From an uncultured bacterium (lineage in GTDB: Bacteria > Zixibacteria > MSB-5A5 > CAIYYT01): DNA of 64,000 nt. The DNA lies in contig CAVSCK010000004.1 of the NCBI GenBank assembly GCA_963726455.1, positions 960,001 to 1,024,000 on the forward strand, given 5' to 3'. Under the pieces are notes generated by a model, which had not been told where the DNA came from, made no database searches, and worked only from the letters and a program-made list of their open reading frames with translations. Below are positions 31,152-48,149 of this stretch, in pieces (position 1 is the stretch's first letter; every line of letters begins with the position of its first letter). The position numbers were made by a program, and so were the translations under genes.

Positions 31152-31268
31152 CTCGCATATAACGATACCGCGAAGATGTCTAGGAGTTCAGACGAAGGCT
31201 CGTCGGTCTGAATCTATTCGCATGCGTTTTGTGAAGTCCGATTGCGAACTGCGACTACAACTGCACAG

Positions 31269-33555
31269 CTATCTGCATCCCGGTCCCTGGCACGGTGCCG
31301 GGCCGTCGGCAAAGATGTAGCGAATGATATACACGGCGTCCGAAATGTCAATACCTCCGCTGCAATCGACATCGCCGACTTCCATCGGATTCGGCGCCGG
31401 TCCGTCCGCAAAGATATATCTGATCAGATAGACTACGTCCGAAATATTGATATCGCTCGAAAGGTCGCAGTCACCGCAGAGATATTTCTGCCAACCCCCG
31501 ACATATCCCGACACTTTCTCGCCCGCAATTGTAAACATCCCGCCCGCCATCAGCTTTCCCTTGAACGTCGTCAGTGCATTAACCCCGAAATTCATTCCTG
31601 AGCCAAGCGGACTCCAGGTCGTGTCATTCCAGACCGCGATGAAATTGGTCGCCGTTGTTCCGGCAGAGGTAAACCAGCCGCCCGCTATCAGATTTCCGTT
31701 GTACACCGTCAGTGCCAGCACGTCAGGTGTATAGACTCCCTGCAAACCTGTTCCAAGCGCGCTCCAATTGCTGCCGTCCCAGGCCGCCACACCGCTGGCG
31801 TTGACCTCTCGTACTGATGTAAACGATCCCCCGACCATCAGCTTGCCGCCGAACACCGTGAGTGAATAGACCCACCCGTCGACACCCTGACTCAGTGACG
31901 ACCAGGTGTTGCCGTCCCACGCTCCGATTCCGAGCGCCGGTACCGTTCCAATCGATGTGAACGCACCGCCTGCATAGAGCTTGCCGTTATAAACCGCGAG
32001 TGCATCAATCCAACCGTCCGGGCCGGAATCCAGCGCCGCCCACGAGCTGCCATTCCATTTCGCAATTCGATTTGCGTCGCCGCCTCCTGCCGTCGTGAAA
32101 CCACCGCCGACGATCAGGCAGCTATCGTACACCGTCATCGCGTTGATATCGTTATTTACGCCGCTACCCACCGGGGACCATGACACGCCGTCCCAAGCCG
32201 CAATACGACTTGCCGCTGCGCCGTCCGCCTGCGTGAAAGCGCCGCCTGCGTATAACTTTCCGTCATATTCCGTCATCGCCCAAACTTTGTCGTTAAACCC
32301 CGCGCCTAGCGCTGTCCACGCCGCGCCGTCCCAGGCAGCCACATGATTGGCGGCTTGACCACCCATCACGCGGAAAACTCCGGCCGCAATCAGTTTGCCA
32401 CCATATTCCGCAAAACAATAGACCGGACCGTTCGCACCCAATCCCATCGCCGACCATGTGCTTCCCGTCCATGATCCGATATTCGCAACCGGTAATCCTC
32501 CGGCCTCCGTGAGCCATCCGCCGGCTACCAGGTTCCCGCCAAAATCTGCCAAGGCCGCCACACCCCCTTTCGACACCGTACCGACTGCTTGCCACTGCAA
32601 TCCATCCCACGTCAAAACGCAGTTTGGTGATTCGGCGCCTTCCGTCACGTCGCGTCCACCGGCTATCAATTGGCCATCATGAACTCTGAGCGCATATACC
32701 GCTGTGAAAGCGCCGATCGTAATTCCGGGGCCAATCGCCGACCACGAACTTCCGTTCCAACTGGCGACGCATTTTGCCGTCAGATCGTTCGCCTTGGAAA
32801 ACATTCCGCCCGCAATCAATCGCCCCTGATATGTCGTCAATGCCGCCACCGTGTTATTCATTCCCGTTCCCAACGCCGACCATGTGCTGCCGTTCCACGA
32901 CGCAATTCGGTTCACTACAGTCGTTCCGGCTTGCAGGAAATTTCCGCCCGCAATCAGGCAGGTATCAAACGCTGTCACCGAATAAACCCGATCCGTAAGA
33001 CCCGAACCGACTGCCGACCACATGGCGCCATCCCAGGCGGCGATATGCAACGTCACGGAATCGCCCGCCGTCGTGAAGTCTCCTCCCGCAATCAGCTTGC
33101 CGCGATAAACCATGAGCGCCCGCACCGAACCGTTCATACCTGTGCCCAGAGTCGACCACGATGCTCCGTCCCACGCCGCGATATAATTCGAGGTCAATCC
33201 TCCGGCAGTCGTGAATTCGCCGCTGACTATCAGCTTGCTGTCAAACGTTGTTACTGCAAACACTCTGCCGTTCGTTCCGGCATTCGAGCGAATCCCATAC
33301 CGAACCGTTCCACGACGCGATATTGCGCGCTTGCACGCTTCCGGCAACTTTGAAATCACCGCCGGCGATTAACTCCACACCGTAATTACCAAGTGCCAGC
33401 ACCGGACCGTCAATGCCCTGAACGTTAAACCCCGACTGCCAATATTGATCATCCGGATTCGGAATGGCCTGCGCGGGATATGTCTGCGATACAACCAGAG
33501 CGCAAATAAGGGTCAGCCAGGTCCGCGCCGTCGATACGAGCTTCATTGTTCGCAT
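31269..33555 (-). CDS. secreted WDG/WNG-repeat beta-propeller protein with dockerin; +1 frameshift near 33285
   Basis: Signal peptide MRTMKLV joins the 31269 ORF after removing one base (..WDSLNAGTNG..); about 13 LIAGGxF..IAAWDGxxW repeats; dockerin. Confidence 0.8.
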
Positions 33556-33665
33556 AACTAATCCTTTAGTTGCGAGTTTGTTGCGTTTGCGACAAGATGC
33601 ATTCTGCATTCCTCTGATCACAACCACAATCACTTTCTATTCCATCCGCATCCGGATTCATCAAA

Positions 33666-34724
33666 TTACCATTTCAACCAGTAGCTCGTGCTATCCGGCA
33701 CGGCCACCTGCTTGCGTAATATCGTTCCCGATGAATAGTAAAACGTGAAATCATATTTCGTATCATCGGGCTGCAAATCACTGCTGGGAATCAGATCGAG
33801 AAACCAGTAGCCGGACGAATCCGTTGCTGTCGACACCGCGTAGGGCGACACTACTGCGCCTCCTGCCTGAAGGGGCGACTTGCCGATCCGTGCCGTCACG
33901 ACGACGCTTTCCAGTCCGCCGGCTCCCAACGTGTGCACATATCCATAGACGCGGCAGAGCGCCATATTGCTCGATTGTCCCGGCTCAAATCTACTCGCCC
34001 AGATCGTGTCACATCCTCCCGACGCCGCAACTGTGACTGGCTTGGGCAAGGTTCCGAAATCGTATCCAGTTAGATACGGCAGCACATGATACTCCGCTGC
34101 ATCCAGCGACAACAGCAATCGTCCATCGCTATTCGTTTCGCCGATGGCAGCAGTTGCCGACTCCTGCGAATTAAGCGCCCGCATAAACACTCCTTGCACC
34201 GCCGATTGTGTGGTCGACTCGAACGCGTAGAGAGTGCAGGCGTAGGCGCCCGTTCCCGTCCCAGTCAATCGTTGTGCCAATATACCCAACGTGTCCTTGA
34301 TCGAATCACTATCGACCGCCAACTTCGCCAGGTAGTCCCCCACTTCATCATCGATCACTTGATATCCGCCGACGGCTGCGCCTCGCCAGTCACCACCGAT
34401 CTTGACACGCACGTATACCCGATAATTCCCCAAAGTGGCCGAGGAATTCGCGCCGCGATAATGAATGTCATACCAGCCCTCGCGCACTCGGTAGAAATTC
34501 GATGCTGTCTGTGTCAGCGAGTCGACGAGGCCGTTTTCCGGGCTGTAACGCAACACAATTATACTATCGGCATCGGCGACACGTGGATAGAGCGTCGTAT
34601 CGAACGTGCAGAAAGTAACTACTACCGAATCACTTGCGCCGTTGCCGACGAATGGCGGCGTGACCCAAATTCCGGCACACGCTGTTCCAACAAGAAACAA
34701 CACCAGTACTAATATTGTCCTCAT
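33666..34724 (-). CDS. secreted hypothetical protein, Ig/transthyretin-like domains, last gene of the capsid operon
   Basis: Signal peptide MRTILVLVLFLVGTACAG; TDSSGYWFLDLIP..TKYDF resembles fibre-attachment modules; AGGAG RBS 1 bp after the upstream stop region. Confidence 0.7.
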   Translation of the reverse strand: MRTILVLVLFLVGTACAGIWVTPPFVGNGASDSVVVTFCTFDTTLYPRVADADSIIVLRYSPENGLVDSLTQTASNFYRVREGWYDIHYRGANSSATLGNYRVYVRVKIGGDWRGAAVGGYQVIDDEVGDYLAKLAVDSDSIKDTLGILAQRLTGTGTGAYACTLYAFESTTQSAVQGVFMRALNSQESATAAIGETNSDGRLLLSLDAAEYHVLPYLTGYDFGTLPKPVTVAASGGCDTIWASRFEPGQSSNMALCRVYGYVHTLGAGGLESVVVTARIGKSPLQAGGAVVSPYAVSTATDSSGYWFLDLIPSSDLQPDDTKYDFTFYYSSGTILRKQVAVPDSTSYWLKW

Positions 34725-34725
34725 T

Positions 34726-36225
34726 TTAGTCTCCTATCAGTCCCGAGCCGACAATCTCAAATCTCCGGCGCTGGGAATTCTGTCCAAAGCTTTCAAGTCT
34801 GACTGTCACGACCGGCCGATTGTTGATGACGCCATCGTCGGCTGCGTAGTAAATGATTTCCGCGTCATTGATTGCGCCTGCTTGATTGTTCCAGAAGTTA
34901 TGCCAGACCCAGCCATGATTCATCGTGGTGTCGATCAGCATGCGCTGTGCATACACCGGCGGGATTGTCCAGGTAATCACGCTTCCCGCTGCCGTGTTGC
35001 TGCGGCTCTGGTGTAACGAATCCAGCACCGTATCAACCACGTCACTGTTTATGCCCAATGCGCCGCCTTGATTCCAGGCGTAGCCAAGCCCGTCTTGTTT
35101 GTAGCGATATGTCCAGCAAACATAGTCAGTGTTTGTCTGCCCCGTGGCGCGTCCGCATTGCCAGAACTGCTTCAGCAACCTGATGCCGTTGGTTGATTCC
35201 CACAGCGAGTCATTCAGGTCCTTTGCGACTTGCTTGACCCTGGTTCGAATCCCAAACTGCTCCACCACGGGTGACGGCTGCCACAGCTTGCGTGACATCG
35301 CGTCATTCTTGATCTTCATTACGCTTACTTTCGCATCATAATCCCAGCCGGTATAGAGATCAGGCCAGGCGCCGTAGCTTTCGAGCGAATCGGCTCCGGA
35401 CGAGTTCTCGAAAAATGCATCTTCGATTTCCAGCCAGCCGGTGAAACAAGCGTTGTGCTCAATGAAGTAGTTACCGGTATCGCGCGCCGCCCACGCCACC
35501 GTGCGGTTGAAGATTGTAAAGAACTGGCACGAATCGCGCGACGTTCCCGTTACCGAAAACAATCCGAGAAACGCGCGCCGTCCTCTGGCGACATTGTTGC
35601 CGTCGCCGGTATTGATGATCGTTTCACCCGAATCGGCAACCGCCAGATGCACGAACGCGGTGTCGCCGGCATTATCTTTGTCGATGATCAGCGGCGTGAT
35701 ATCGTGGCAGGTATCGGGAAACGCCAGTCCGTAGATTCCAATGGAAGTCGAGGTCCACAACAGCACCGTGTCCTGCAAGACGCGCGTAATCCAGTGATTC
35801 CGATTTATCGCGCGGACATAACCCGCATTCTCCAGCGTCCTGCCGTTGGTGCCGTCGGAATTGACACCGAGATTGATCTCGTTCCAATTCTCCGACAACA
35901 GACTGACAAAACCGACGCGCGATCTCGCGATCGTGTCCGCGTTGGCCGATGGCGCCGGAATGGCGACCTCGTTGCCGCACCAGACCACAACGTCGAATGC
36001 CGTATCGAAATAGGCCGCAGTGCGCTGCGCCACCGAATCGGGCGTCAGCCAGCGCACGCTGTATTCGAGGTCGCTGCACAGCGCATTGTACAGCAACGTG
36101 TCGATTCCCTTGTTGGCAATGTTGGCGACGACCAGCCCGGCACGTTTGCCGACGGCGTTTGCGTCGACCGCAGTCGCCAGTATCACGGCGAGTGCTATTC
36201 CGAATCCGACGATGACTCTTCTGAT
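34726..36225 (-). CDS. secreted hypothetical protein with DNRLRE-like C-terminal domain
   Basis: Frame is open to ATC at 36225 behind AAGGAGG, giving signal peptide (M)RRVIVGFGIALAVILATAVDANA; C-terminal NHGW..RPVVTV. First canonical start is GTG 36186. Confidence 0.65.
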   Translation of the reverse strand: MRRVIVGFGIALAVILATAVDANAVGKRAGLVVANIANKGIDTLLYNALCSDLEYSVRWLTPDSVAQRTAAYFDTAFDVVVWCGNEVAIPAPSANADTIARSRVGFVSLLSENWNEINLGVNSDGTNGRTLENAGYVRAINRNHWITRVLQDTVLLWTSTSIGIYGLAFPDTCHDITPLIIDKDNAGDTAFVHLAVADSGETIINTGDGNNVARGRRAFLGLFSVTGTSRDSCQFFTIFNRTVAWAARDTGNYFIEHNACFTGWLEIEDAFFENSSGADSLESYGAWPDLYTGWDYDAKVSVMKIKNDAMSRKLWQPSPVVEQFGIRTRVKQVAKDLNDSLWESTNGIRLLKQFWQCGRATGQTNTDYVCWTYRYKQDGLGYAWNQGGALGINSDVVDTVLDSLHQSRSNTAAGSVITWTIPPVYAQRMLIDTTMNHGWVWHNFWNNQAGAINDAEIIYYAADDGVINNRPVVTVRLESFGQNSQRRRFEIVGSGLIGD

Positions 36226-36464
36226 GATGACTCCTCCTTTGATGACAGCTCTTCGTTGCGCAGTTGATTGATCAACTCCCAGATTTTCTGGCGTTCTTCC
36301 TCCGGCAGCCGCAACTTCATTTTCAGTTCCAGCGCCTTCAAAAGGTCACCGACCCGGGGATTGATTTCCTTGCTGCGCAGTTCCTCAATGATCTTGTCCT
36401 GAATTTCCTCCAGAACTTCCAGATCACTCTTGCGTATCTTCGCGGTGTTGTCGCTTTCGGTCAC
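36195..36464 (-). CDS. small helical hypothetical protein (possible small terminase-like)
   Basis: GGAGG RBS and GTG start; charged helices; function inferred from context only. Confidence 0.6.
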   Translation of the reverse strand: MTESDNTAKIRKSDLEVLEEIQDKIIEELRSKEINPRVGDLLKALELKMKLRLPEEERQKIWELINQLRNEELSSKEESSSEESSSDSE

Positions 36465-36465
36465 T

Positions 36466-36621
36466 CTATTGCGCCTCCAATGATGCTTCCAGCAACTCGC
36501 ACGCCGTCTTCCTGAATCGTTTGCAGCAGACCGGGCAGCGGCGAATCACGCCCTGGCTGTTGGCGAAAAACAGCGCGCCGCAATGCGGGCAGAGCACGCC
36601 GTGTAATGGTTCATTCATCAT
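36466..36621 (-). CDS. 51-aa zinc-ribbon protein (absent from the ORF track)
   Basis: MMNEPLHGVLCPHCGALFFANSQGVIRRCPVCCKRF..EAQ*; fills the gap between neighbours exactly. Confidence 0.7.
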   Translation of the reverse strand: MMNEPLHGVLCPHCGALFFANSQGVIRRCPVCCKRFRKTACELLEASLEAQ

Positions 36622-36626
36622 GCAGT

Positions 36627-36998
36627 TCACCCCATTTCAATTATCAGCAGATCGACCGCGGCCACCTGTGTCGTCGGTGTCGCTTTGGCAAGCGCAAACG
36701 ACTTGTCGCCTTCGCTCCCCTGTACGACCACCGGAATGCCACCCTTGGCCAGCGGCAACACACGCGGGTTGGTCAGTTGCTCCGGCAGTTTGTTTCCCTT
36801 CACGTCGACCAGATTCCCGTAGTTAAGTTGCTGCACGGTTCCACCCAGGGCGACTTGAGCGTGCACGATTCGCTTGGACGCGCCCTCGGATTCAGTTACC
36901 ACGAAGTGCGGCTCAAAGGCGGAAATCGTGCCCCAGACATTCACGCCTGACACCCACCACATCTTCTTGCCGAGAAGTTGACTCAATGTGGTACTCAT
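36627..36998 (-). CDS. hypothetical protein in the capsid operon (head completion?)
   Basis: ATGA overlap with the upstream gene; beta-rich 123 aa. Confidence 0.65.
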   Translation of the reverse strand: MSTTLSQLLGKKMWWVSGVNVWGTISAFEPHFVVTESEGASKRIVHAQVALGGTVQQLNYGNLVDVKGNKLPEQLTNPRVLPLAKGGIPVVVQGSEGDKSFALAKATPTTQVAAVDLLIIEMG

Positions 36999-37834
36999 TG
37001 TTCCCTGCCTCCTTTCACTGCCGTCGGCGTATTCAGGCCGCCGCGCGGTCCGGCGAAACGCGCCGCCAGTTGCAGTCCATCGGCGTGATATTTGTCCGCC
37101 AACTCGCGCCAGCCACGCGCAATTTCTGCCGCACCGACTCCGACCGATTCCAGCGCGGCCGCTGCTTTGCCCCGGCAGAGGAATGCCAGCGCCAGATAGG
37201 TCTCGGCCGTGATCAATGATTGATCTCCGGCGTCCTGGTAAGAAGGATCGATCAGCTTCAGCAACAAGTCGTCCGCGGCGGTGATCGCACTCGCGATCAG
37301 CGAGTCATCGGTGCCACCACTCTGAGTTTGATAATCGACGAACACACTCTGGCCATCTTCGATGACGCCGGCGTTAATGCGCCGAAGCGTTCCCTTTTCG
37401 TGATTGACGCTGTAGTCGACGCCTTCCGTGTAGACGCGATAGGCGTAATACCAGACCGCAACGGATGTATCGCTCGGAATACTGCCGGCGGTGATGCGGG
37501 CAAGTTTGCCGTCGGCGTGGTCAACATGGTAATCGACGTTCTCAGTGTAGATGGTTCCCAAGGAACTGTCGGAAGCAACTACCACGCTGTCTGGGATCAG
37601 ATCGCGATTCGCCAGAGTGACCGGCTGCGAAGTCAAAGCCAGGTTTTCGAACCGTGGCGTGCCGATCTCTTTCCCTTTCACTTTCACTGTGCCCTGCCTG
37701 AGATTGGCGTGCAGCAACGCCGACGGCGACGCCGCCAGCAATTGCACCGACACATCCGTGAAAGTGTCACGCGCCTCGCCAACCTGCGCGAGATATTGTC
37801 TGATGGTTTCGATATTCGTAAATGGCATCTTCAC
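36995..37834 (-). CDS. putative head-tail connector-like protein
   Basis: Two YTExVDYxVxxxxG repeats typical of virion proteins; C-terminal helical DDSLIASAITAADD..AETYLALAFL similar to gp6/gp15-type connectors. Confidence 0.55.
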   Translation of the reverse strand: MKMPFTNIETIRQYLAQVGEARDTFTDVSVQLLAASPSALLHANLRQGTVKVKGKEIGTPRFENLALTSQPVTLANRDLIPDSVVVASDSSLGTIYTENVDYHVDHADGKLARITAGSIPSDTSVAVWYYAYRVYTEGVDYSVNHEKGTLRRINAGVIEDGQSVFVDYQTQSGGTDDSLIASAITAADDLLLKLIDPSYQDAGDQSLITAETYLALAFLCRGKAAAALESVGVGAAEIARGWRELADKYHADGLQLAARFAGPRGGLNTPTAVKGGREQ

Positions 37835-37841
37835 ACCTCCC

Positions 37842-39266
37842 TTAGTTGTTCAGGAAATTGATTTCGGGTAACGGCGTAATCTGGCTGCCGATCGGCGCAG
37901 TTGTGAATGCGGAAGTCACGATCACCTTGATCCAGTAAGCATTGAGACCGATGATCGCCGTCTTCTGCCAGTCAGCCGGAGCGGACGCGGAATCGATCCA
38001 GAGCCGGACGCGCTGGGTGAGTTGATCGAAATGATATGCGCCTGACTGTGGTGTGAACTCCTGCCAGGTAGCGCCGTCGAAATATGCCCAGGTTACCGCG
38101 CCACCCGCGTCACCTGCCGTTGACAATATGAAATTGCAGGCAGAGAATTTGTCATCCGCGCCGAGACAGATTGCGTCCCCGACGGACTGAATCAATTTGG
38201 TAGAATCCAAGTGACGAACGTCAGCGACGGCGCTGCTGGCGGCTTCCGCAGTTAGTCCCTGATAGTCGGGGATACCGTTGGTGTCGTACAACAACACATA
38301 CTTGAAGCGCACGAATTCGCCGTTGAGATCGACTGCGGGCTCGAAGCCGACGCCGTTCTTGCGGCGATAACGCAACTCTGTCTGGCCGTCACCGAGCGAC
38401 GTTCCGAAAATCACATAGGGAGTTGCGCCATTGAACATCAGCAACGGCGCAATGACGGGATCGGCGCCGATCTCGTAGGAGGCGCTCCAGTTGGCGCCGT
38501 CGTATTCGATGTACCAGGTTTTTGCGCCTGCGTTGACGGCCACTCCGATAAGTGAACCCGATTCGGAGCAACGCGCCGAAAACGCATCCGACAGCGATGT
38601 TCCGGTGTAAATCGTGACTTCGGATTCCCAGAAGACGCCGCCGTTTGGTATGCGCCGGTATGCGAGTTTGGCGCCGCCGTCGGTGTAGATGCAATACACC
38701 CACGGTTGCAGATACACGAAGCAGCCGTAGCAGCCGCTCGAACCGACCGTCAATGCCTCGCCGGGATCGGCACTTCCGGCCCCCCAGAGTGTGCCTTCAA
38801 CGACAGAAGTCTTGGCGTGTAAGGTATAATTGCCGGTCGCAGAATCGTAACAAGTCCACGAGACCCAGAGCTTACCGGAGACGTCTTTCAGAATCGACGG
38901 AAAGTAGTTGTCCTTGTCATTGTAAATCGTGGCTTCCGCGCCGACGGTCCACACTCCTGCCGAAAACGATAGCTTGCGGAATAACAGGTCGAGCGTGGTC
39001 TCCGCTGTGAATGCGATATAGACGTTGCCGTCTGAGTCCATAGTTGCAGCGACAGGATAGTCGGCGGCGTTGGTGGCGATGGTCTGCGGAGTCGACCAGT
39101 CGGCATACGGCGGATCGGCACAGCTGAATTTGATCGTAGAGGGCGAGGCGGAATAGACAACGATCTGCCTGCCGGAATAGACGCCGGACGTGATCGTAAA
39201 CAACTTGCCGGTCGGTGTGTTACCCGCGCCGTAGAAGGCGGTCGATGTATCAATCAGATTTTGCAT
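37842..39266 (-). CDS. beta-propeller-like putative structural protein
   Basis: Start MQNLIDT (GAGG RBS); repeats such as MDSDGNVYIAF and KDVSGKLWVSW; C-terminal AYWIKV beta-sandwich; follows the MCP. Confidence 0.6.
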   Translation of the reverse strand: MQNLIDTSTAFYGAGNTPTGKLFTITSGVYSGRQIVVYSASPSTIKFSCADPPYADWSTPQTIATNAADYPVAATMDSDGNVYIAFTAETTLDLLFRKLSFSAGVWTVGAEATIYNDKDNYFPSILKDVSGKLWVSWTCYDSATGNYTLHAKTSVVEGTLWGAGSADPGEALTVGSSGCYGCFVYLQPWVYCIYTDGGAKLAYRRIPNGGVFWESEVTIYTGTSLSDAFSARCSESGSLIGVAVNAGAKTWYIEYDGANWSASYEIGADPVIAPLLMFNGATPYVIFGTSLGDGQTELRYRRKNGVGFEPAVDLNGEFVRFKYVLLYDTNGIPDYQGLTAEAASSAVADVRHLDSTKLIQSVGDAICLGADDKFSACNFILSTAGDAGGAVTWAYFDGATWQEFTPQSGAYHFDQLTQRVRLWIDSASAPADWQKTAIIGLNAYWIKVIVTSAFTTAPIGSQITPLPEINFLNN

Positions 39267-39320
39267 GGTTTCCTCTTCAGCGCAGGCCGCCACGATTGCG
39301 CGCGGCGGCCTGCAACAGCG

Positions 39321-40442
39321 TTAGAACGTATCGTCCAGCACCAGCGATGCTTCGTTGATAACTTTGGCGTACGCCACGGACTCGGAGATGACTGCTTCCT
39401 CGAATTTCTGTTCGATGATGCGGTCATATTCCACCACCAGCGGCTGACTGATGACTTCCTCAACCGCGAAGCGTGAATCCATGCCGACGATCAGGTCGGA
39501 CGGAATTTCGTCGCAACGCACCAGCTTGGCGCCCAGCGGCGAGCCCAGTTCGCCCGTCGACTGGAACTTGAATCCGGCGAGCGGATCCTTGAATTCAGTG
39601 AGCGTGAGAATCTGCCGCATCTTGCTCTTGTGGCAGAGAAGCGTGTTCATCTCGAACGGCGCAAACTCCGCCCAGAATTTGACCAGGTCGTCATAGTCGA
39701 AGGAGCCGGAAACATCGGTGTTGAACATCGCGGCGGCATTGTCGTTGCCGTCGCCGTTCTGCACGACGTCAGCCAGCAATGCCACCTTGTCCGACTGCAA
39801 CCGGAAGCCGAGGTACCAGAGCAGCACTTTGAATTGAGCCAGTGTGCGATGCCGCAGCGTGCGATACGACACCTTCAGCGCGATGCCGTATTCCGGCACG
39901 GTCACGGTCTTCTTCTGTTCGTTGACGACGAACTGCGGAATTTCAGCGCCCTCGGATATCGGTCGCAACGACAACCGGCTGTCGCCGGGGGTGATGTTGA
40001 GATAGAGCGGCGAATAGCGATTGGAGCCGATCACCGTCTGCGCGGCGGTGAGTTGATTGTATACTGGGCGCATCGCCATCCCTTTGCGGACCTCGCGCAT
40101 CACGAACTCCGGCAAGAGCGACGCGGCGGCGCGATAGAATGCTTCGACGGTGTCGGGAGTTCTGCCGTTGACGCGAATGCCGTGCACCGCGAGTTGTCTT
40201 TCGAAGGCATCGAGCGGCGCGCCAACCGGCGAGGGATCGTAGTCATCGCCTTCCAGCAGTTCGGTCAAGCTCAAGCCCCTGGCTTGCGCTTCGAGATAAG
40301 TGTCGCGCGTGATGTTGATCTTGCCGGCGCGGCTTAAATCGACGTTCGCCAGCCGCGTATCTTTGCCGGCAAATGCATCAAGATCAGGCGCCGTGAGATT
40401 CCAGAAGTTGTCCGGTATTTGTTTCAGGTTTTCTAATTCCAT
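39321..40442 (-). CDS. major capsid protein (HK97-fold, inferred)
   Basis: 373 aa from MELENL; LDAFERQL..GIRV..DTVEAFY..LLPEFV..VRKGM, EGAEIP, YGIALKVSY, EYDRIIE resemble a capsid family I recall from Firmicutes prophages; expected position after protease/scaffold/cement. Confidence 0.8.
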   Translation of the reverse strand: MELENLKQIPDNFWNLTAPDLDAFAGKDTRLANVDLSRAGKINITRDTYLEAQARGLSLTELLEGDDYDPSPVGAPLDAFERQLAVHGIRVNGRTPDTVEAFYRAAASLLPEFVMREVRKGMAMRPVYNQLTAAQTVIGSNRYSPLYLNITPGDSRLSLRPISEGAEIPQFVVNEQKKTVTVPEYGIALKVSYRTLRHRTLAQFKVLLWYLGFRLQSDKVALLADVVQNGDGNDNAAAMFNTDVSGSFDYDDLVKFWAEFAPFEMNTLLCHKSKMRQILTLTEFKDPLAGFKFQSTGELGSPLGAKLVRCDEIPSDLIVGMDSRFAVEEVISQPLVVEYDRIIEQKFEEAVISESVAYAKVINEASLVLDDTF

Positions 40443-40524
40443 TCCTTCTCCTTTGCGGCCAGTCACGTTGACAGGCCATAGTTGATCGATTGCCAGGTAA
40501 TTGCTGCTCCCCTTGTGCACTGCC

Positions 40525-40947
40525 TCAATTGAGGAGCAGCGTGCAGTCGCTGGTGCCGTTAACCGACAACACCAGTCCGCGCGCGATATTGCCGCCGGCA
40601 GGATCGTTGCCGGTCAACGCTGGCGCTTGTTTGATTTTGCCGTCGGCGGCGCCGACGATGCTGTTGCCGATTACCGGATAGGTAGCTGCGATGGCGAGAG
40701 ACATCACGCCGGCTACCTGCACGGTCGCTTTGCGCTTGCCGTTGTCGGCATCAGTGAGAGTGAGCGCGATCAACTTACCGAGCACCTGTACCCCGTCGGT
40801 GGTAGCTTTGACCCGGTTGCCGGTACTCAGTTGAACGGCTTTGCCGATGTCAGCGTTCTTGAGGTCGTCGCTGCCGGCGGTTTGAGCGATGTCGAAGGTC
40901 AGATATAGCGCGCCGGTGGTTTCCAGATTTTGTTCACGTACTGCCAT
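40525..40947 (-). CDS. capsid decoration/cement-like protein
   Basis: 140 aa with DIGKAVQL, ATVQVAG and ADGKIK; immediately upstream of the MCP. Confidence 0.6.
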   Translation of the reverse strand: MAVREQNLETTGALYLTFDIAQTAGSDDLKNADIGKAVQLSTGNRVKATTDGVQVLGKLIALTLTDADNGKRKATVQVAGVMSLAIAATYPVIGNSIVGAADGKIKQAPALTGNDPAGGNIARGLVLSVNGTSDCTLLLN

Positions 40948-41000
40948 TGTGATCCTTTCCAGTCAGTTTGGTTCGCGTCGGTTTGTCGGCGAACCAATGG

Positions 41001-41396
41001 TTACACTTTGAACTCGGACGTCTTTTCTCCCCCGGCGGCCGCACCTGTCGGCTCTGTCTGCTTGCGGGAGAAGACGCGGTCGAATTCGGTTTCGATGTCC
41101 TGTTTGATTCGTTGCAGGTCGGCAAGGTCGGTCGTGTCGGCGGAGATTAAGCGTTCGACCAATGCGCTCGAACCGCCGGCGAGGCGGGCGATAGCGCGGG
41201 CTTTGCTGCAGAGCTCGTCTTTGAACAGTTGCACGAGGCGGTCGGCGATTGCCGCGCGCGCCTGCAGTGCCTGCAGAACCGTGACGGCGTTCTCAAGCTC
41301 AACGGCGAGTTGCTCGAAATCGATGTCGGCAAGTTGCGCCTGCTTGAGGCGTCCGGCGGTTTGCATGAGTGATTCAAACAGTTTGGTGAATTCCAT
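41001..41396 (-). CDS. coiled-coil scaffold-like protein
   Basis: GAGGAGG RBS before MEFTKL; helical; lies between protease and cement genes. Confidence 0.55.
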   Translation of the reverse strand: MEFTKLFESLMQTAGRLKQAQLADIDFEQLAVELENAVTVLQALQARAAIADRLVQLFKDELCSKARAIARLAGGSSALVERLISADTTDLADLQRIKQDIETEFDRVFSRKQTEPTGAAAGGEKTSEFKV

Positions 41397-41437
41397 GATA
41401 TCCTCCTCTGAAGTTTCGTTGATAGAGATTGCGAGTG

Positions 41438-41761
41438 TCAACGTTCGTCACCGGGTAGCATTTGCAATTTGGCTTCAATGATGAGCAGTTGACGATGCAG
41501 GTCGTCGCGGACCTGTTGCAGTTCGGCTTTGGTGGCCATGCGTTCGGTCAGAATGGTTTCGATGCGCACCAGGCGGCTGTCGATAGTGGTCACCATGGCG
41601 GAGTCGGCCTTGGCGGCGATCTCCGATTTGAGGCCGTAGATGGTGGCGTGATAGGCGGTGACAATTCCCGCCACCGTCACGATCAGACCCAGCAGAAATC
41701 GCAACAGGTTTTCTTTGCGGAACAGCTCCGGCCTGTGGCTCGAATTAGACAGTCTGTTCAT
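41438..41761 (-). CDS. single-TM coiled-coil protein (holin/XhlA-like candidate)
   Basis: LLRFLLGLIVTVAGIVTAY transmembrane segment followed by heptads. Confidence 0.6.
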   Translation of the reverse strand: MNRLSNSSHRPELFRKENLLRFLLGLIVTVAGIVTAYHATIYGLKSEIAAKADSAMVTTIDSRLVRIETILTERMATKAELQQVRDDLHRQLLIIEAKLQMLPGDER

Positions 41762-43559
41762 GTTGCATACTCCTTCTCAGCTTTCCGAACAACCAGATGG
41801 CGCGCTTGCCGAAATGCGTCTGCTCAATCGCATAGTGGCCGGACAACGAGGCGCCGGAAAGTTCAAGCGCAATCTTGTTGGGAGTGGATTGATCGAGGCC
41901 ATTGATCACACCCTGATCGACCAGAGCGACGCGACCGGAAGGACGTTCGCAATGTGGCGAGTTGTCGATTTGTTGGCATACCTGTCGATGTCCAACCGGC
42001 AGTGTTATGGGATTGCGTCCGCGCAGGCGCAGCACTGACACGCTGTCATCGTGATGAAGTTCGAGCCAGTAGTCGCCGCGGCTGTCGTGCAGCAGGCGGA
42101 AACGATTGTCGCCATTCGTCGGCTTCAGCTTGGTTGCGACAGATGCGAAGTCGGGGTAAGCGTCGCCGATGCAGAGATCGAGATAGACAAATCGATTCCG
42201 ATCATGCTTGTCAGGATGCACCACGATGATTTCGCCGGTGTGCAGGTGCGAGGTCTTTCCGATCAGACGATGACAAGTTGGCGTTTCAGTTTCAATGGAC
42301 GTTCTGAATTCGACAAAGTAGTTCGACTTCCCATTCGCTTGCGGCTCGATGACAACTTTGCCGCGCAATTGTTGCTGGTGACGAATCTCGAAGACCTGCG
42401 GCGCATCACTGCCGGCGAGATCGATAATGCGCATTCCTTCGCCACTCCCCTTGCTCGCGGCCTTGTGTTGCAGGTCAACGAAGCGGCAGCGATAATGAGC
42501 CAGCGGCGCAATCGATTGTGAACGAGTGAAACGCTTTGTGAGAATCGCCTTGCGTTCGATCAGTGAAAGTCGCGACAGATCGGCGCCATCCAGACGATAA
42601 AGATCGACCAGACTCAGAAAACAGCGCGGCTGCTTCCTTCCAGAGGAATACTCTCGCAACGTCTCAAGCGATAGACGGCTGGCGCCTTTTACCGGAATCA
42701 GTTGCGCCAGTACTCGGAAGTCGGCGACGCCAGATGAGCCGGTGAGTTCGTCCAGAATCGGATCGGTGAAACACGTGCCGTCAAGTTTCGTCGCCGTGAG
42801 TTTGCCGGCGCGCGAGTCGATATCGAGCCAGATGCCGTGATAGAGTGGCTCGATCAGAATTTCATCGAGTGGGGTTTTGAGTTTCGCAAGGTCAAAGAAG
42901 ACCTCGGCCCGCGAGCGCCAGAACGTGTCGGTTGAATCCGTGAAGTCGACATCGGCGGCCAGCGAACTCACGCGCGTGTTGGGGACGGCGCCACGATAGA
43001 CGAGCGAGACTTCCAGCACTTTTTCAATCTGCTTGTAGAAGTAGAATGCGCGTACCTCCCTGCCGCCAAGGCGAACGACTTCATTAAGGCGGTGCCGGCA
43101 ATGCCGCATATCTTCGCGACAGATGCAGCATTCCGGTTTGCCGTAAAGAAATCCGAGGGAACATTCTTTGTAGATGCCGGATTCGATGCCGGCCTTCAAC
43201 GTGTCGGCGTCGCGTTGATCGCGGTGCCAGTAGAACCAGGCCTGCAACCAGGGAGTGCCGTCGCGAGGAACAACTTCGCTTTTGAAGACGCGGCCGATCG
43301 GCAGTTCCTGTTTCTTGTGCCCAACCATGACCGGCGCATCGACGATCAGTTGTGCGAGTTGTGTCAACTCAGTGATCTCGAAACAGCCGCCCTGCAGGTT
43401 GACTTCGTTCGATGCCGCCTGCAAGAGGCCGAGATAGACGTTGTCGGCTGTGACCGATTGCGACGGCTGCACGACGCGGTTGATTTCATCGATAAGTTCC
43501 TGTCGATCGCCCAACTCACCGGCGGCTGAGATCGACAATGAACCAATAAGCTTTTCCAC
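41745..43559 (-). CDS. prohead protease-like domain fused to degenerate ATP-dependent ligase and LigD phosphoesterase-like domains
   Basis: GTG start with GAGGAGGT RBS; VMVGH, PIGRVF, KECSLGF, CCIC..CRH, LEVSLV; then EPLYHG, VDLYRLDGADL..ERKAIL, GEGMRI; then VDQG, LSGASLSGHY, WLFGK. Confidence 0.7.
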   Translation of the reverse strand: MEKLIGSLSISAAGELGDRQELIDEINRVVQPSQSVTADNVYLGLLQAASNEVNLQGGCFEITELTQLAQLIVDAPVMVGHKKQELPIGRVFKSEVVPRDGTPWLQAWFYWHRDQRDADTLKAGIESGIYKECSLGFLYGKPECCICREDMRHCRHRLNEVVRLGGREVRAFYFYKQIEKVLEVSLVYRGAVPNTRVSSLAADVDFTDSTDTFWRSRAEVFFDLAKLKTPLDEILIEPLYHGIWLDIDSRAGKLTATKLDGTCFTDPILDELTGSSGVADFRVLAQLIPVKGASRLSLETLREYSSGRKQPRCFLSLVDLYRLDGADLSRLSLIERKAILTKRFTRSQSIAPLAHYRCRFVDLQHKAASKGSGEGMRIIDLAGSDAPQVFEIRHQQQLRGKVVIEPQANGKSNYFVEFRTSIETETPTCHRLIGKTSHLHTGEIIVVHPDKHDRNRFVYLDLCIGDAYPDFASVATKLKPTNGDNRFRLLHDSRGDYWLELHHDDSVSVLRLRGRNPITLPVGHRQVCQQIDNSPHCERPSGRVALVDQGVINGLDQSTPNKIALELSGASLSGHYAIEQTHFGKRAIWLFGKLRRSMQHEQTV

Positions 43560-43590
43560 TGTACCTCCTCGGGGCTTACCACATGCCCTC

Positions 43591-43636
43591 ACTTATGTCC
43601 GCCATGTGGATTTATCCTCAAGAGCACTACAAAAAT
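43591..43636 (-). promoter_or_regulatory. conserved upstream motif of the capsid operon (copy 2)
   Basis: Minus strand ATTTTTGTAGTGC-N10-AAATC-N11-CATAAGT. Confidence 0.7.
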
Positions 43637-43794
43637 TCGGGGGCCCGTTGAAGACGTAAGTCGCTGTTGGGCAACAACGGGAAATGTGCACACGTTTGCG
43701 CAAGAAACCGGGTTGTTGCGGGTCGGATTTACCAGCAAAAATATTTTCGTGATGCTGGACAATGTGTTACGATGTTTTTGGGCTTGACAGGTCT

Positions 43795-43810
43795 GGGCAC
43801 GAGAGTTGCT
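43795..43810 (+). promoter_or_regulatory. sigma54 -24/-12 promoter
   Basis: GGGCACGAGAGTTGCT (GG-N10-GC) about 30 bp upstream of the PEP-CTERM gene. Confidence 0.65.
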
Positions 43811-43840
43811 TGAGTATGTGTCGCAAGAAGGAGGAAATTC

Positions 43841-44176
43841 TTGGAACGTACAATGACTTATCTGAAGCTGCTCGGTATCCTGATCGGGATCGTGATGACG
43901 ATTCTCTGTTTGGGTTACACGAATGCCTACGGAATAACCGCTCCGCATTTTCTGATGAACAATCAGAACGGCGGCACGAACTCGACCGGCCTTACCAGTG
44001 GTGGCGACATAACTGACGAGGTCAGGATTCTGGGGGACAGATTCAATCAGGATAATCTGGACGGCACCAATTCGACCGGCGATGAAAAGAGTCCGCCGTC
44101 GATTCCGGAACCGGCGACGCTGATACTGTTGGGCACCGGTCTGGTTGGTGTCAAGCTGTTCAGACGGCGCCATTAG
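43841..44176 (+). CDS. small PEP-CTERM protein
   Basis: AAGGAGG RBS and TTG start (or ATG 43853); signal peptide; IPEPATLILLGTGLVGVKLFRRRH. Confidence 0.88.
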   Translation: MERTMTYLKLLGILIGIVMTILCLGYTNAYGITAPHFLMNNQNGGTNSTGLTSGGDITDEVRILGDRFNQDNLDGTNSTGDEKSPPSIPEPATLILLGTGLVGVKLFRRRH

Positions 44177-45504
44177 ATTTCACTCAGGCGAAAGCCGGGG
44201 CTGATTCCACGATTTGCAACAACTTTCGCCTGCCACAGCGCCAGCGCCAAAGCCATACAGGCATCGGCAGTGGTGTTTTCCTCCCAACTCAATTCACGTA
44301 ATTCCTCGGTAAACGACCAGTAGTCGTTGTTGGCCGTCGTCAATTCGATGGACGGAATGGCGACATTGCTCGATTCGAATTGCGATTGCAGATTCGTGAG
44401 CAACTCAGGTTTGGATTTCGGCGAGAAGATGAAGCCGATGGCTTTGATGTCCTGCAATTCCTGCAGTACGACATCGCCGGCGCCGGTGGCATCAATGATG
44501 GTGTCACCGCCGAATTCGCGTTGACGTTGGCGAATCGTTTCGAAGACGTTCGGCCAGTCGCGACGATGGAAGCGTTCGAGTTTGACGACTTGGTGCGGAC
44601 GCGTGGTGACATCGAGCGTAATGCCGACGGTATATGTCTGTTTGCGCGCGAGATCCCAGCCATGAATGTAGCGATGATGCGGTAGTTTCTCCGACATTCC
44701 GGTTGATTGCGACAGCGCCTGCTGAATGTACTCCTCCCCTAACACCGCATTTCCCGAATCGACGAACATGCCATAGATGTTTTGTTGAACGCGCGTTTGC
44801 GGCAGCGATTCGATTTTGGCGCAGAGGTATTCGCTGGAGAGAAAGGGATTGTCGGTTGATCTGCCGGAGTGAACATAGCCCGTATCAGGTTGCGATTGGA
44901 GTTCAAGATATTTGCGATGGAACCAATTGCGTCCGCGCGGAGTCGAGACCAGGTCGAGCATGCCCTTGCGGTCAGCGAGGCGCATAGTCAAGACTTCGTT
45001 GACGACATAGTCAGGATGCAACTCAAAGGCGACCTCGTCGAAATTGATGTAGTCGTAATCATGGCCGAGAATATGTTCGCCGCGATTCTGCGACGTGCGG
45101 GCCGTGATTTCGGCGCCGTTGCCGAGTTCGATTTTGGGATACGGCGTGTAGGTGACTTTGTCGACGAGCAACTCGACCAGCGATTTGCCTTTGATGAGAT
45201 TGAGGCAATTCGTGAAGATGATGTTGGCCTGATCCTGCGTGATGGAAACATTGAGCACTCGGTAACGGCCCGCGGAATCGAAGCGCGTGTCGCGATGGCG
45301 ATAGACGGCGCGGTGAATAATCTTGGCGGCCTGAATCGTTGATTTGCCCCAACGGTTGCCGGTCACGAGCAGGTTCTGACCGCAGGTTGAATTTGTCAGC
45401 CAGGCGGCTTGTCCCGGATGGGGATCGAGTTCGAGAAATTCGCGGCAGAAAAGCACGGGATCGGTGACGGCTTTTCGCCAGCGGCTGTGTTTACCTACGC
45501 GCAT
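44173..45504 (-). CDS. terminase large subunit
   Basis: Walker A GNRWGKS, Walker B INFDEVA, VSTPRG, DNPFLS; nuclease GWDLA, IIDATGAGD, DACMALALA. Confidence 0.9.
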   Translation of the reverse strand: MRVGKHSRWRKAVTDPVLFCREFLELDPHPGQAAWLTNSTCGQNLLVTGNRWGKSTIQAAKIIHRAVYRHRDTRFDSAGRYRVLNVSITQDQANIIFTNCLNLIKGKSLVELLVDKVTYTPYPKIELGNGAEITARTSQNRGEHILGHDYDYINFDEVAFELHPDYVVNEVLTMRLADRKGMLDLVSTPRGRNWFHRKYLELQSQPDTGYVHSGRSTDNPFLSSEYLCAKIESLPQTRVQQNIYGMFVDSGNAVLGEEYIQQALSQSTGMSEKLPHHRYIHGWDLARKQTYTVGITLDVTTRPHQVVKLERFHRRDWPNVFETIRQRQREFGGDTIIDATGAGDVVLQELQDIKAIGFIFSPKSKPELLTNLQSQFESSNVAIPSIELTTANNDYWSFTEELRELSWEENTTADACMALALALWQAKVVANRGISPGFRLSEI

Positions 45505-45516
45505 AGGGTGACCTTT

Positions 45517-45890
45517 CTATTCTGTGAGACACAGGTGTTTCGATGGGACACGGAACACACCCCTTGATCCCCTCTCGAGAGGGGAAAACAACAAACGGCT
45601 CATCTCGCGGCTGGAAAAGAGAGCGTCAAGACCGAAGCGGTTTTGATCTATAACTACTACACCTACGCGCATGGGCATGATAGATTGCCTCCTCCTGTCT
45701 TCGGACAATCAGGAATGTTTGACCTACGAGGCCTCTTGATGCAAGGCGCGTTACGAGAGGGACAAACAGGAATGTTTATCCTACCGAACTGCTCACACTT
45801 GCATACGCCGGCATAGATTCTATTACCCATTCGTACATCGCAACAAACTTCCCTCACCCCTAGCCCCTCTCCCAATGGGAGAGGGGAAGA
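45517..45890. repeat. host REP-like cluster between terL and portal
   Basis: CACACCCCTTGATCCCCTCTCGAGAGGGG, TCAAGACCGAAGCGGTTTTGA, GGACAAACAGGAATGTTTATCC and CCCTCACCCC..CCCTCTCCCAATGGGAGAGGGG, all also found outside the cluster. Confidence 0.82.
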
Positions 45891-46021
45891 GGGTGTTGGG
45901 GGATGAAGTGCGGGGTGGTGTGAGGATGATGAGGGTGACATTGCTTCTCCTGACTAGACTAGCGATGGACGAGGGCTGCGTTTTCGCAGCGTCGCAGGTC
46001 GTCTATTCCATACTTGGCGGA

Positions 46022-47302
46022 TCACTGCATCCGTGACAGTTCGCGTAAGGCCTGATCGTGTGTGATCAGTTTGTTGTCGAGCTTGGTGATGATGTTTTCG
46101 AGCATGATCTTTTCGGCCTGGGCGCGGTCGGCGATGCCGATGGTGATGCGGTTGTCGAAATGAGAACGGACTTCGACATTGAATCCGAGGAGCGCCAGTT
46201 CAACGTTGGCAATCCAATCAATCAGCGATGCCGCCGCCTGCTGCACGGTGGCGACCTGCCGCTGCACGAGTTCATACTTGAACTCGGCCCAGTTGTGCGT
46301 GGTGCCATACGCGTAGCCGAGCATGAAGGGCGCGAGATTGGTGCCGGCGCAGATGTCCTCGATCATGGCCTTGTGGTTCATGTACCAAGCCGTCGACGCG
46401 GAAGATTTGGACGACGGGCCGATGTATTCGATCTTGACATCGTTCCAGGTGACCGGATTCTTGTCGGGGCCGAAGTCGTGCATCATCTCGACGGTGTCAT
46501 CGAAATAGGAATTGGCGCGGCGGTAATAGTCCTCTTCGGTTTCGTCGGCGCGGCGTTCCGGTGGCGTGAGTTGCACGTGAATGCGGTGGTAGCCGGAGCT
46601 GCGCATGGAGCGATGCATGTCATTGATCAGGGTTTGCTCGACGCGGGCGACGAAAGGAATCGAATGTAGCAGCGAGCGGCCGACAACATTGCCGGGTTGC
46701 GTGCCGAGACCGTAGTAGAAGATCGATTGGTCGTTGAGCGGGATTTTGTGTTCGTCGAAAGATTGATACAGCCGATGGTGGTCGCCCTCCTGCTCGACCG
46801 TGATGGACAACATATCCGCGAGCAGAAATCGTTCGACGCGATTGCGCGAGGGCGTAAGTTGCAGCTCGCCGCAGATGGCGCCGTCGGTGAAGAGTGATTC
46901 GAAAAATTGGAGTAGCAGTTCGCGAAAGCCGCCGCGCTTCATCAGCCCGTCGCGGAAAATGCGGGCATCAAGATCGGCAAGCGCCGTGCGGATACGGTCT
47001 TCCTCGGAAGCCGAGACATCGCCGACGACCTGGAAGTCATAGTCAGCAGCGCAGAGCCGCACCCAGGTCCAGACGACGGCGTTGAGAACGGGGACGTGGT
47101 CGCGCAGGAAACGGTAGAGCTGCCGCCGCGCGCGGTCGGTTTCGGCGGCGTCAACCGGAAGGCGGGGATTGAGTTCGAGGAATGAAGCGCGCAGCCGGGG
47201 GCGGGATTTGAGGCCCGCCGGTACGTCTAACTTGTTGGTCTTGCGCAGGTTCTCGTTGATTGTGGCATTGTTGCGCCGTTTTCGCCAAAAGTCTGTGATC
47301 AT
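46022..47302 (-). CDS. phage portal protein
   Basis: 426 aa next to TerL; LYRFLRDHVPVLNA..VRL, GRSLLHSIPFV, VKIEYIG, APFMLG resemble portal families; AGGAGG RBS. Confidence 0.75.
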   Translation of the reverse strand: MITDFWRKRRNNATINENLRKTNKLDVPAGLKSRPRLRASFLELNPRLPVDAAETDRARRQLYRFLRDHVPVLNAVVWTWVRLCAADYDFQVVGDVSASEEDRIRTALADLDARIFRDGLMKRGGFRELLLQFFESLFTDGAICGELQLTPSRNRVERFLLADMLSITVEQEGDHHRLYQSFDEHKIPLNDQSIFYYGLGTQPGNVVGRSLLHSIPFVARVEQTLINDMHRSMRSSGYHRIHVQLTPPERRADETEEDYYRRANSYFDDTVEMMHDFGPDKNPVTWNDVKIEYIGPSSKSSASTAWYMNHKAMIEDICAGTNLAPFMLGYAYGTTHNWAEFKYELVQRQVATVQQAAASLIDWIANVELALLGFNVEVRSHFDNRITIGIADRAQAEKIMLENIITKLDNKLITHDQALRELSRMQ

Positions 47303-47319
47303 GTTTCGATAGTCCTCCT

Positions 47320-47365
47320 ACTTATGGGGGCGACCAAGATTTTTGGTGTTCGGCGCTACAAAAAT
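47320..47365 (-). promoter_or_regulatory. conserved upstream motif of the portal-terL operon (copy 1)
   Basis: Minus strand ATTTTTGTAGCGC-N10-AAATC-N11-CATAAGT. Confidence 0.7.
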
Positions 47366-47411
47366 GCAAAAAGGACTTGCGCGTCAACGCTGGCTTGATT
47401 ATATAATCACC

Positions 47412-47514
47412 GGAAACCCGAGTGTTGTTGTTGGTTTAGACACAAGCCAAAAGCATTCAAAGATCTCCAACTTGTGTTCCCCGCAATAGCCAACACACAA
47501 CACTCGCTTTTTTT
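47412..47514 (+). ncRNA. candidate ~100-nt rod-shaped small RNA
   Basis: Upstream TTGCGC and TATATA/TATAAT; three nested stems; ends in T7; no ORF. Confidence 0.45.
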
Positions 47515-48096
47515 GCGTAAGCGCCGCACAAACTGCGATCAGCTAATCTCAAGCCACACAAACTCTTAGTGTTTTCGGGACAACATTTCTGTTTAGGTCA
47601 TGGGCGCAGTTACTGCTCTGCGTTGACTGCGCCGGAATGCCCCTCAGTTAAGAGCTTGTATTTCAGTCAGTTACGAAATGGCAAATAAGAGAAGTGCGGG
47701 CATGCAATTTGTTAGAGTTAGGGGCAGAAATGGGTTGAACAAAACCGTGTCAAGGATCACAGTAATGTCAAACGACAACCTGTTTCTAACGAAGCGTTTT
47801 GCATTACCGATTGGTGGGGAGATCTAACGGGTCTCCTCACTGAAACTGAGGACCTAACCGCTAAAGTTGAGATGGCGGGAAGTTTCGTCAAAGCAGCGCA
47901 GTTTTGACATCGTAGTAATGTTGCTTCTTTGGGATTAGAATCGGGAGGATAATTGCGAGATTGTCCTCCCGGGATGAAAGTGAGATAGAGGACAACAGAG
48001 GACAGGGAGACAGAGTAACAAAGCCCGCAATTATTTTACATACCTACCTACAAGACCTTGAGTTACCGGGTTAGTAGTAACGACAAGTTGCTCAAG

Positions 48097-48131
48097 CAAG
48101 GCCGGATCCGAGCCCTCGGAGCCCGGCCTTG
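48097..48131 (-). terminator. hairpin downstream of the SBBP gene
   Basis: CAAGGCCGG..CCGGCCTTG inverted repeat about 20 bp after the stop. Confidence 0.55.
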
Positions 48132-48149
48132 TTATTTTGGTGTAATCCC

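Follow-up and report, generated by a model that had tools for sequence, protein, structure and literature searches.

A phage-derived head and packaging module, probably domesticated, in the bacterial phylum Zixibacteria

How a compact set of phage head and packaging genes comes to be in the chromosome of an uncultured bacterium of the phylum Zixibacteria, and what it may do there, is the question raised by a locus in a 64,000-nucleotide stretch of DNA (the window, i.e. positions 960001-1024000 of contig C4 of genome G000, a 3.64-Mb genome of five contigs that is scored 100% complete). According to the open reading frame (ORF) listing, 13 intact minus-strand ORFs are packed tightly within 33666-47302 of the window, to which positions below refer unless stated otherwise. 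It is very probable, in our assessment, that this cluster is a domesticated, vertically inherited and selected phage head and packaging module; the best reading is an ancient, host-owned particle system that goes back to an independent capture of phage genes and is of a kind not previously known from this lineage.

The cluster encodes a portal protein, a large terminase (TerL), a protein with a prohead-protease-like domain (p615) and an HK97-type major capsid protein (MCP), i.e. phage-derived structural and packaging genes in a host chromosome. By family assignment, this combination of portal, TerL, maturation protease and HK97-type MCP corresponds to the head module of tailed phages (Caudoviricetes). 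The first-pass annotation, made from the letters of the window, had described intact, colinear head and packaging ORFs; this description is borne out by ORF calls and PHROG matches, and neither stops nor frameshifts interrupt any of the 13 ORFs. Neighbouring ORFs are spaced by -17 to +162 nt, barring two larger gaps, i.e. portal-TerL (517 nt) and TerL-p615 (580 nt). An alignment of 24 TerL sequences shows the Walker A residues G49/G53/K54, the Walker B residues D156/E157 and the nuclease residue D284 to be invariant, with D338, D344 and D414 at least 90% conserved; the portal alignment (25 sequences) has 41 invariant columns. An encapsulin nanocompartment, i.e. an HK97 shell lacking portal and terminase, is not consistent with this gene content, portal and TerL with conserved catalytic residues being part of the conserved set.

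As far as genes were recognised, nothing in the module would let it integrate, excise or replicate by itself. Family and profile scans, including those with Pfam and PHROG, recognised no integrase, replication gene or repressor among the cluster ORFs, and the four integrase matches in the genome all lie outside the window, the nearest ~36 kb from the portal gene. There is no tRNA gene within the window and no direct repeat of at least 13 bp (att-like) between the flanks 30401-33700 and 47251-51200, in agreement with the absence of an integrase, and of tRNA and att site at the edges, that had been reported initially. In the whole genome, Phage_sheath_1, PhageMin_Tail (tape measure) and Baseplate_J have no match. 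Two kinds of host element noticed in the first pass are indeed present inside the cluster, i.e. repetitive extragenic palindromic (REP)-like elements between the portal and TerL genes, and a gene for a small PEP-CTERM protein, which scores over the TIGR02595 cut-off.

Distribution, vertical descent and selection

In a survey of genomes at least 85% complete (239 in total, all in one class), an MCP match was found in 225 genomes, 110 of the 115 genera and 18 of the 19 families of the phylum; for the nearest genomes the figure is 37 of 41. Nearly always there is one match per genome, with two in 10 of the 225 (these are matches, not copy numbers). Among the matches listed, MCP identity drops with taxonomic rank, from 85% within the genus through 68-74% within the family to 54-65% in other families. 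When 20 kb around the MCP gene in 20 genomes from 12 families were searched with the window proteins, p140, MCP, p483, p279 and p123 were found at all 20 loci, always in the order of the window; p615 was found at 18, p352 at 17, TerL and p89 at 14 each and portal at 13, with p486 recognisable in three only. The TerL and portal counts are those within 10 kb of the MCP gene, and in four genomes where they are not next to the capsid genes, portal and TerL occur together elsewhere on the same contig, at 15 (G180), 20 (G225), 91 (G217) and 109 kb (G181) from it.

Among the 14 genomes with no MCP match, nine retain both portal and TerL, and G226 retains TerL but not portal; in this genome and in G199 the contig ends before the MCP gene. 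A clean deletion of p107 through p486 is seen in G084 (99% complete), portal and TerL only are present in G074 (also 99% complete), and in G005 portal and TerL are followed by a dockerin gene. The one-contig genome G043 has the capsid genes and portal without TerL. Four genomes have none of MCP, portal and TerL; these nest inside module-bearing clades of the RpoB tree, and so are taken to reflect secondary losses or assembly gaps.

The module has been inherited vertically rather than spread horizontally. A tree from p140, MCP, p483, p279 and p123 combined and a tree from RpoB, both for 21 genomes, have 17 of 18 splits in common, against 0.3 on average, and never more than 3, when labels were shuffled (2000 trials), and the sole difference is the place of one long branch (G238). 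With the module alignment, an approximately unbiased (AU) test does not reject the RpoB topology (p = 0.297). The portal and TerL tree has 13 of 16 splits in common with that of RpoB, the differing nodes being weakly supported. Pairwise module and RpoB distances are correlated (r = 0.74), with none of 5000 Mantel permutations giving a value as high.

The module is also maintained by selection. Ratios of nonsynonymous to synonymous substitution rates (dN/dS), calculated by the Nei-Gojobori method (NG86), are 0.02-0.17 for MCP in 47 pairs of close genomes and 0.02-0.25 for all 13 genes (up to seven pairs, dS about 0.1-2.5), a few pairs being too diverged for the calculation. The outlier is a value of 0.50 for p107, which comes from a pair with an over-extended ORF call. 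The proposal in the first-pass annotation of a long-resident, selected capsid system is thus upheld by the distribution, the congruence with a host marker tree, a kind of comparison that it had suggested, and the dN/dS values; neither the patchy distribution nor the dN/dS near 1 that it had named as signs of a decaying prophage was found.

These results bear directly on the possibility of an ordinary decaying prophage remnant, with which the lack of recognisable tail, lysis or integration genes and the partial deletions in a few genomes would be compatible. The presence of MCP throughout most of the phylum, the congruence of the module and RpoB trees, the low dN/dS values, and the 13 ORFs free of stops and frameshifts, although the same assembly has a frameshifted rpoB, exclude such a remnant, to which we give practically no weight. 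A mobile element is, on the evidence, also strongly disfavoured.

Another reading is that of a temperate phage or satellite that is still active and, having co-speciated with its hosts, merely gives the impression of being fixed. This would account for the intactness of all 13 genes under purifying selection, and for a cluster composition that is atypical for the genome. A homologous fragment has, moreover, been called viral by one IMG/VR pipeline. That fragment, the only MCP match in IMG/VR (with an 84% identical MCP), is on inspection a piece of a host chromosome from the same genus, with the same dockerin-gene flank and the PEP-CTERM gene. Other evidence is also against an active phage or satellite. 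The scans recognised neither an integrase nor an att repeat, tRNA, replication gene or repressor, and the cluster measures only 13.6 kb. Genomes almost always have a single match, some have parts of the gene set as much as 109 kb apart, and repeats and genes of the host are found within the cluster. In addition, families f1 and f5 have the same flanking CDP-alcohol transferase gene. We therefore regard this alternative as very improbable and retain a domesticated, vertically inherited module as the preferred reading.

Relatives among phages and comparison with known systems

Relatives of the module among phages are distant. The best MCP matches in 50,697 phage records have 32-37% identity, all being to unannotated gut "Bacteriophage sp." fragments, and the best TerL matches, to Thermus and Meiothermus phages, have at most 28%; the near-identical phage matches that the first-pass annotation had linked to an ordinary prophage are therefore absent. 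An ordinary prophage, as recognised by an integrase with att sites, a patchy distribution and close phage relatives, was accordingly set aside.

Outside the phylum, MCP relatives (33-37% identity) were found at loci of Oscillospiraceae. One of these, L075, is a myovirus-type prophage with the gene order TerL, portal, phrog_16951, phrog_4588, MCP, adaptor, sheath and baseplate. The phrog_16951 protease, the phrog_4588 small head protein and the MCP families are common to L075 and the module, and the L075 portal is a distant relative (23% identity by tblastn, with a different best PHROG family); profiles of p483, p279, p123 and p89 have no match in L075. Unlike the module, L075 carries sheath and baseplate genes, for which reason the Firmicutes MCP relatives were rejected as candidates for systems resembling FpGTA (see below).

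A relative of p279 (P0199) was found in L128, a 35-kb environmental IMG/VR viral contig, of which 21 kb were examined. The order in L128 is tail fibre, a 931-aa protein, tailspike, the p279 relative, a p89-like ORF, TerL (31% identical) and portal (27.5%, same PHROG). The portal, TerL, p279 and p89 families are thus common to L128 and the module, with the difference that L128 has tail fibre and tailspike genes. Of what was found, L128 comes closest to being a free-living relative of the part of the module concerned with packaging and the neck. On the basis of these matches, p279 and p89 are assigned as phage genes; neither p483 nor p123 has a counterpart in the examined stretches of L075 and L128. 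Identities between the module and the two loci are only 20-37%. Since its families are split between L075 and L128, the module is a mosaic, assembled from gene families of phage heads and necks.

Gene transfer agents (GTAs) of the RcGTA type, from Alphaproteobacteria, are vertically inherited phage head and packaging genes that are very old and under purifying selection, with sporadic loss and dispersal of some genes, and they have a full siphovirus-like tail (tube, tape measure and fibres). Vertical inheritance, purifying selection, sporadic loss and gene dispersal are features of the present module too. By contrast, no such tail genes were found here, and the capture appears independent, in another phylum, the comparison being one by description. 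Capsid-forming phage-inducible chromosomal islands (cf-PICIs) have their own terminase, portal, protease, MCP and head-tail connectors, with no tail; they are mobile and patchily distributed, and have an integrase, att sites and replication genes. The present locus showed none of these latter features, and assignment as a cf-PICI was rejected, the module being fixed and vertically inherited rather than a mobile island.

A further alternative is that the domesticated genes make a capsid for a purpose other than gene transfer, e.g. an anti-phage device that packages DNA or steals tails (like a fixed cf-PICI), DNA export or storage, or delivery via p486/p352. An adaptor-like p279 with p123, in the absence of a tail gene, is what a tail-borrowing element would keep; the conservation in the operon of two secreted proteins and one membrane protein is unusual for virion genes; and the module is dispensable in several lineages. 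Against this, family and profile scans of the cluster recognised neither defence-type nor regulator genes (the PADLOC library was not searched), known cf-PICIs have integrase and replication genes that are absent here, and the known host-owned systems combining capsid and terminase are GTAs. A non-transfer capsid is, on balance, rather unlikely.

By analogy, the closest functional precedent found is FpGTA of Faecalibacterium prausnitzii, which is reported to have ~40-nm capsids without visible tails and to be encoded by two operons 125 kb apart (PMC12946183). The genes described there are those for TerL, portal, scaffold, MCP and hypothetical structural proteins, with no integrase, and the second operon has baseplate, fibre, holin and endolysin genes, the system being genus-level in Firmicutes (PMC12946183). 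The same paper states that few GTAs have been described, most of them in Alphaproteobacteria (PMC12946183). As far as this source describes it, FpGTA is like the module in having host-encoded head and packaging genes, in that loci can be far apart and in lacking an integrase; compared by description, the module differs in being phylum-wide, in having no recognised lysis genes and in the fusion of its protease to a ligase-like domain.

Possible function of the module

Taken as a whole, a mechanism in which a captured head and packaging set has become a host-owned, viriform or GTA-like system is one that we favour with some reserve. An ancestor of the Zixibacteria would have captured the set, which would since have been inherited vertically as a property of the host. 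The strongly conserved region upstream of the portal gene would switch on the operon; a procapsid would be built from portal, the scaffold-like p146 and the HK97-type MCP, with p140, and would then mature through the p615 protease domain. DNA would be pumped and cut by TerL, for which p89 is the probable small subunit, the adaptor-like p279 and p123 would close the portal, and the propeller protein p483 may be located on the neck as a spike or binding part, a long tail not being made. For the secreted p486 and p352, a task at the cell envelope, connected with release or reception, is probable. We infer particle formation and cargo by analogy; the likeliest cargo would be host DNA, as in GTAs, and transfer of host DNA specifically is a serious possibility that we stop short of favouring.

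The first-pass annotation had termed the module head-only. The part of that claim concerning the absence of a recognisable tail gene stands, yet six conserved genes come after the MCP gene (p483, p279, p123, p89, p486 and p352), two of them for proteins with signal peptides, which the term does not cover. The particle may have a neck or short tail, since p279 is adaptor-like and its relative in L128 adjoins tailspike genes.

Several points weigh against the proposed mechanism, or against the age and vertical descent on which it depends. No lysis gene was recognised in the window, and with the RpoB alignment the AU test marginally rejects the module topology (p = 0.038). The tetranucleotide make-up of the cluster is farther from the genome mean than 99% of 89 equal-sized chunks (all but 1.1%), and its GC content is 56.3% vs 53.6% for the genome, an atypical composition that is odd for such an old resident. 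The module is dispensable, given G084, G074, G043 and the four genomes with none of the three markers. Purifying selection and co-divergence alone do not tell the task of the particle. Finally, the adaptor (p279), neck (p123) and small-terminase (p89) proteins are candidates assigned from leads and gene position, not from fold comparison.

A more specific proposal, which is tentative and in our view rather unlikely, is that of a phylum-age viriform of new build. Its DNA-filled, tailless HK97 capsid would have an adaptor, a small beta protein and a propeller "spike" as its closure. The same operon would supply two secreted envelope proteins and a coiled-coil protein anchored in the membrane, with which the particle would cooperate, and control would be exerted by a non-coding element upstream of the portal gene that is invariant in family f1. 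If true, this would represent DNA export or exchange unlike any described GTA.

Irrespective of its exact task, the module is kept in about 94% of the sampled genomes of a whole uncultured phylum, and its tree mirrors that of the host. It serves as a dated case of virus domestication in the very distant past, and as a likely route by which genes are exchanged among as yet uncultivable bacteria of sediment and groundwater. For structural and evolutionary work, it offers a natural collection of several hundred orthologues that have evolved together, all of a minimal packaging machine that is apparently tail-less. A caution for practice is that virus-mining pipelines will call such host loci viral, IMG/VR already holding one. 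No publication on such a capsid/packaging module or a GTA in Zixibacteria was found in titles and abstracts (supplementary files could hold a mention).

Individual components and their surroundings

Table 1. Features of the module, given in window coordinates and listed from the upstream region to the distal end of the cluster
Feature	Position	Strand	Basis or remark
Upstream non-coding region, ~850 nt	47303..48150	-	Candidate promoter, operator or leader
Portal, 426 aa	46022..47302	-	phrog_3753, 1.7e-21
Portal-TerL gap with two host REP-like hairpin elements	45505..46021	.	Copies at 45851-45873 and (variant) 45558-45576
Large terminase TerL, 443 aa	44173..45504	-	phrog_2, 1.3e-30
Small PEP-CTERM protein	43841..44176	+	TIGR02595, 23.8 bits (cut-off 16)
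p615, prohead-protease-like N-terminus (~210 aa) and degenerate ATP-dependent DNA-ligase-like domain	41745..43592	-	phrog_16951, alignment
p107, one N-terminal transmembrane helix and coiled coil	41438..41761	-	Sequence
p146, helical, scaffold-like, fast evolving	41001..41441	-	Sits between protease and capsid genes
p140, small head protein	40525..40947	-	phrog_4588 "virion structural protein", 6.7e-8
HK97-type MCP	39321..40520	-	phrog_3922, 1.3e-63; Pfam Phage_capsid_4 (PF25209)
p483, beta-propeller (~residues 30-340) and C-terminal beta-sandwich	37842..39293	-	AlphaFold model
p279, head-tail-adaptor-like, two inserted immunoglobulin (Ig)-like repeats, helical ends	36995..37834	-	Atlas leads, Ig-like matches
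p123, small beta-rich protein after p279	36627..36998	-	Neck or stopper candidate
p89, small basic/acidic helical protein	36195..36464	-	Small-terminase candidate from position of phage relative
p486, fast-evolving secreted protein	34726..36186	-	Signal peptide
p352, secreted, carboxypeptidase-regulatory-like	33666..34724	-	Signal peptide; conserved C-terminal half (residues 155-352)

The non-coding region upstream of the portal gene includes three blocks that are 80-89% identical across four genera of the family, genera among which synonymous sites are saturated. Within it, 47 nt (47440-47486) are invariant in 11 sequences; on the minus strand, a 13-bp hairpin that includes G-U pairs is possible for this stretch, in which TTG/TTTG words also occur. 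No Rfam family matches the region, and RNAalifold found covariation in none of 22 predicted pairs, because the block is invariant, so that an RNA structure is neither supported nor ruled out thereby. The conservation suggests that the region may control the operon.

The N-terminal domain of p615 fits a prohead protease; its ~210 residues include invariant S61, H92 and S145 and a Cys3-His cluster, and the assignment is based on phrog_16951 (function unnamed), position and the invariant His/Ser residues. The C-terminal ~400 aa give a weak but repeated ligase-like signal, i.e. PF01068 in 4 of 23 members (best E 8.6e-4), the PDB ligases 3rr5/2cfm (E 4e-5) and a non-homologous end-joining ligase model (0.0038). 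The motif-I lysine is absent in all 23 long-form p615 sequences; the ligase-like domain is therefore taken to be non-catalytic, and an active ligase was rejected. In other genomes p615 is ~300-360 aa long, without the ligase-like part.

Homologues of p107 (cluster c10) are present in 18 of 33 loci. p146 has no family match over threshold in Pfam or PHROG, and its positional analogues in other families are c24/c31/c42. No other gene of the set is as well conserved as p140 (mean column identity 73%); a PDB profile search with it gave nothing, and its homologue in L075 directly precedes MCP. Since MCP homologues align from ~residue 22 onwards, translation probably begins downstream of the listed GTG.

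For every gene after MCP, the role is proposed from sequence features, models and gene context. The AlphaFold model of p483 has a predicted local distance difference test score (pLDDT) of 93.6 and a predicted template modelling score (pTM) of 0.88; a single BNR Asp-box was seen in 8 of 12 members inspected, there is a weak PDB profile match to 4irt (9e-5; Bacteroides propeller proteins), and tblastn against the 50,697 phage records gave no match. p483 may serve as a spike or in receptor binding. Language-model leads and the gene context in L128 make p279 a candidate head-tail adaptor (gp6/gp15-like). The nearest named Atlas clusters for a p279 homologue, which are leads only, are Phage_Gp19 (0.90), a gp6-like connector (0.88) and the SU10 adaptor (0.85). 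PDB profiles gave nothing for p279 and tblastn against the phage records one chance-level match, and a profile search of 1.84 billion proteins found 509 representatives at E <=1e-3. The model of p123 (pLDDT 89.1) has one short helix and eight strands; no sequence match was found, including with PDB profiles.

p89 is a candidate small terminase subunit, its profile hidden Markov model matching the ORF directly upstream of TerL in L128 (E 2.5e-7); this phage relative occupies the place where small terminases sit. A PDB profile search with p89 gave nothing.

Nearly all p486 and p352 members have N-terminal signal peptides. Positional analogues of p486 in other families are 430-540 aa long, also with signal peptides, and one has a Disaggr_repeat (5.6e-10). 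Homologues of p352 match PF13620 (6e-5), and one matches a phrog_892 tail fiber (5.6e-11). A conserved ~100-aa protein (c12), which has a single transmembrane helix and is helical towards its C-terminus, is encoded after the p352 homologue in 12 of 33 loci (L015, L017, L018, L020, L025, L027-L029, L031, L032, L046 and L048) and was not found in the window by tblastn. Assignment of c12 as a holin, suggested by a holin-like architecture only, was dropped as unsupported, Pfam and PHROG having given nothing.

Host genes lie on both flanks of the cluster, including those for four large beta-propeller proteins with dockerin domains, a CDP-alcohol phosphatidyltransferase, Lon protease and ABC transporter parts. 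The dockerin-bearing propeller proteins flank the cluster on both sides (27744-33359 and 48150-53540); in other families such genes are inserted inside the cluster (loci L017, L023 and L024), e.g. in the p483/p279 interval in L023 and L024. The position of the PEP-CTERM gene is occupied in families f1, f16 and f5 too (positional homologues c21/c34/c36).

Outside the window, rpoB of the same genome (G000:C4:919343-923111) is split into two frames, and that of G225 (G225:C6:1494685-1498439) into six pieces. These splits are probably indel errors of long-read assemblies, so single frameshifts in such genomes are not to be taken as pseudogenes. A GC-skew sign change at ~38 kb (within ~36000-40000, irrespective of gene strand) was considered as an origin or terminus and rejected, the 1.9-Mb contig having many such switches. 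The REP-like element GGGAGAGGGG..GGGGTGAGGG has 56 strict copies in the genome, of which 18 fall in the window, five of them at 113-bp spacing (~18959-19433).

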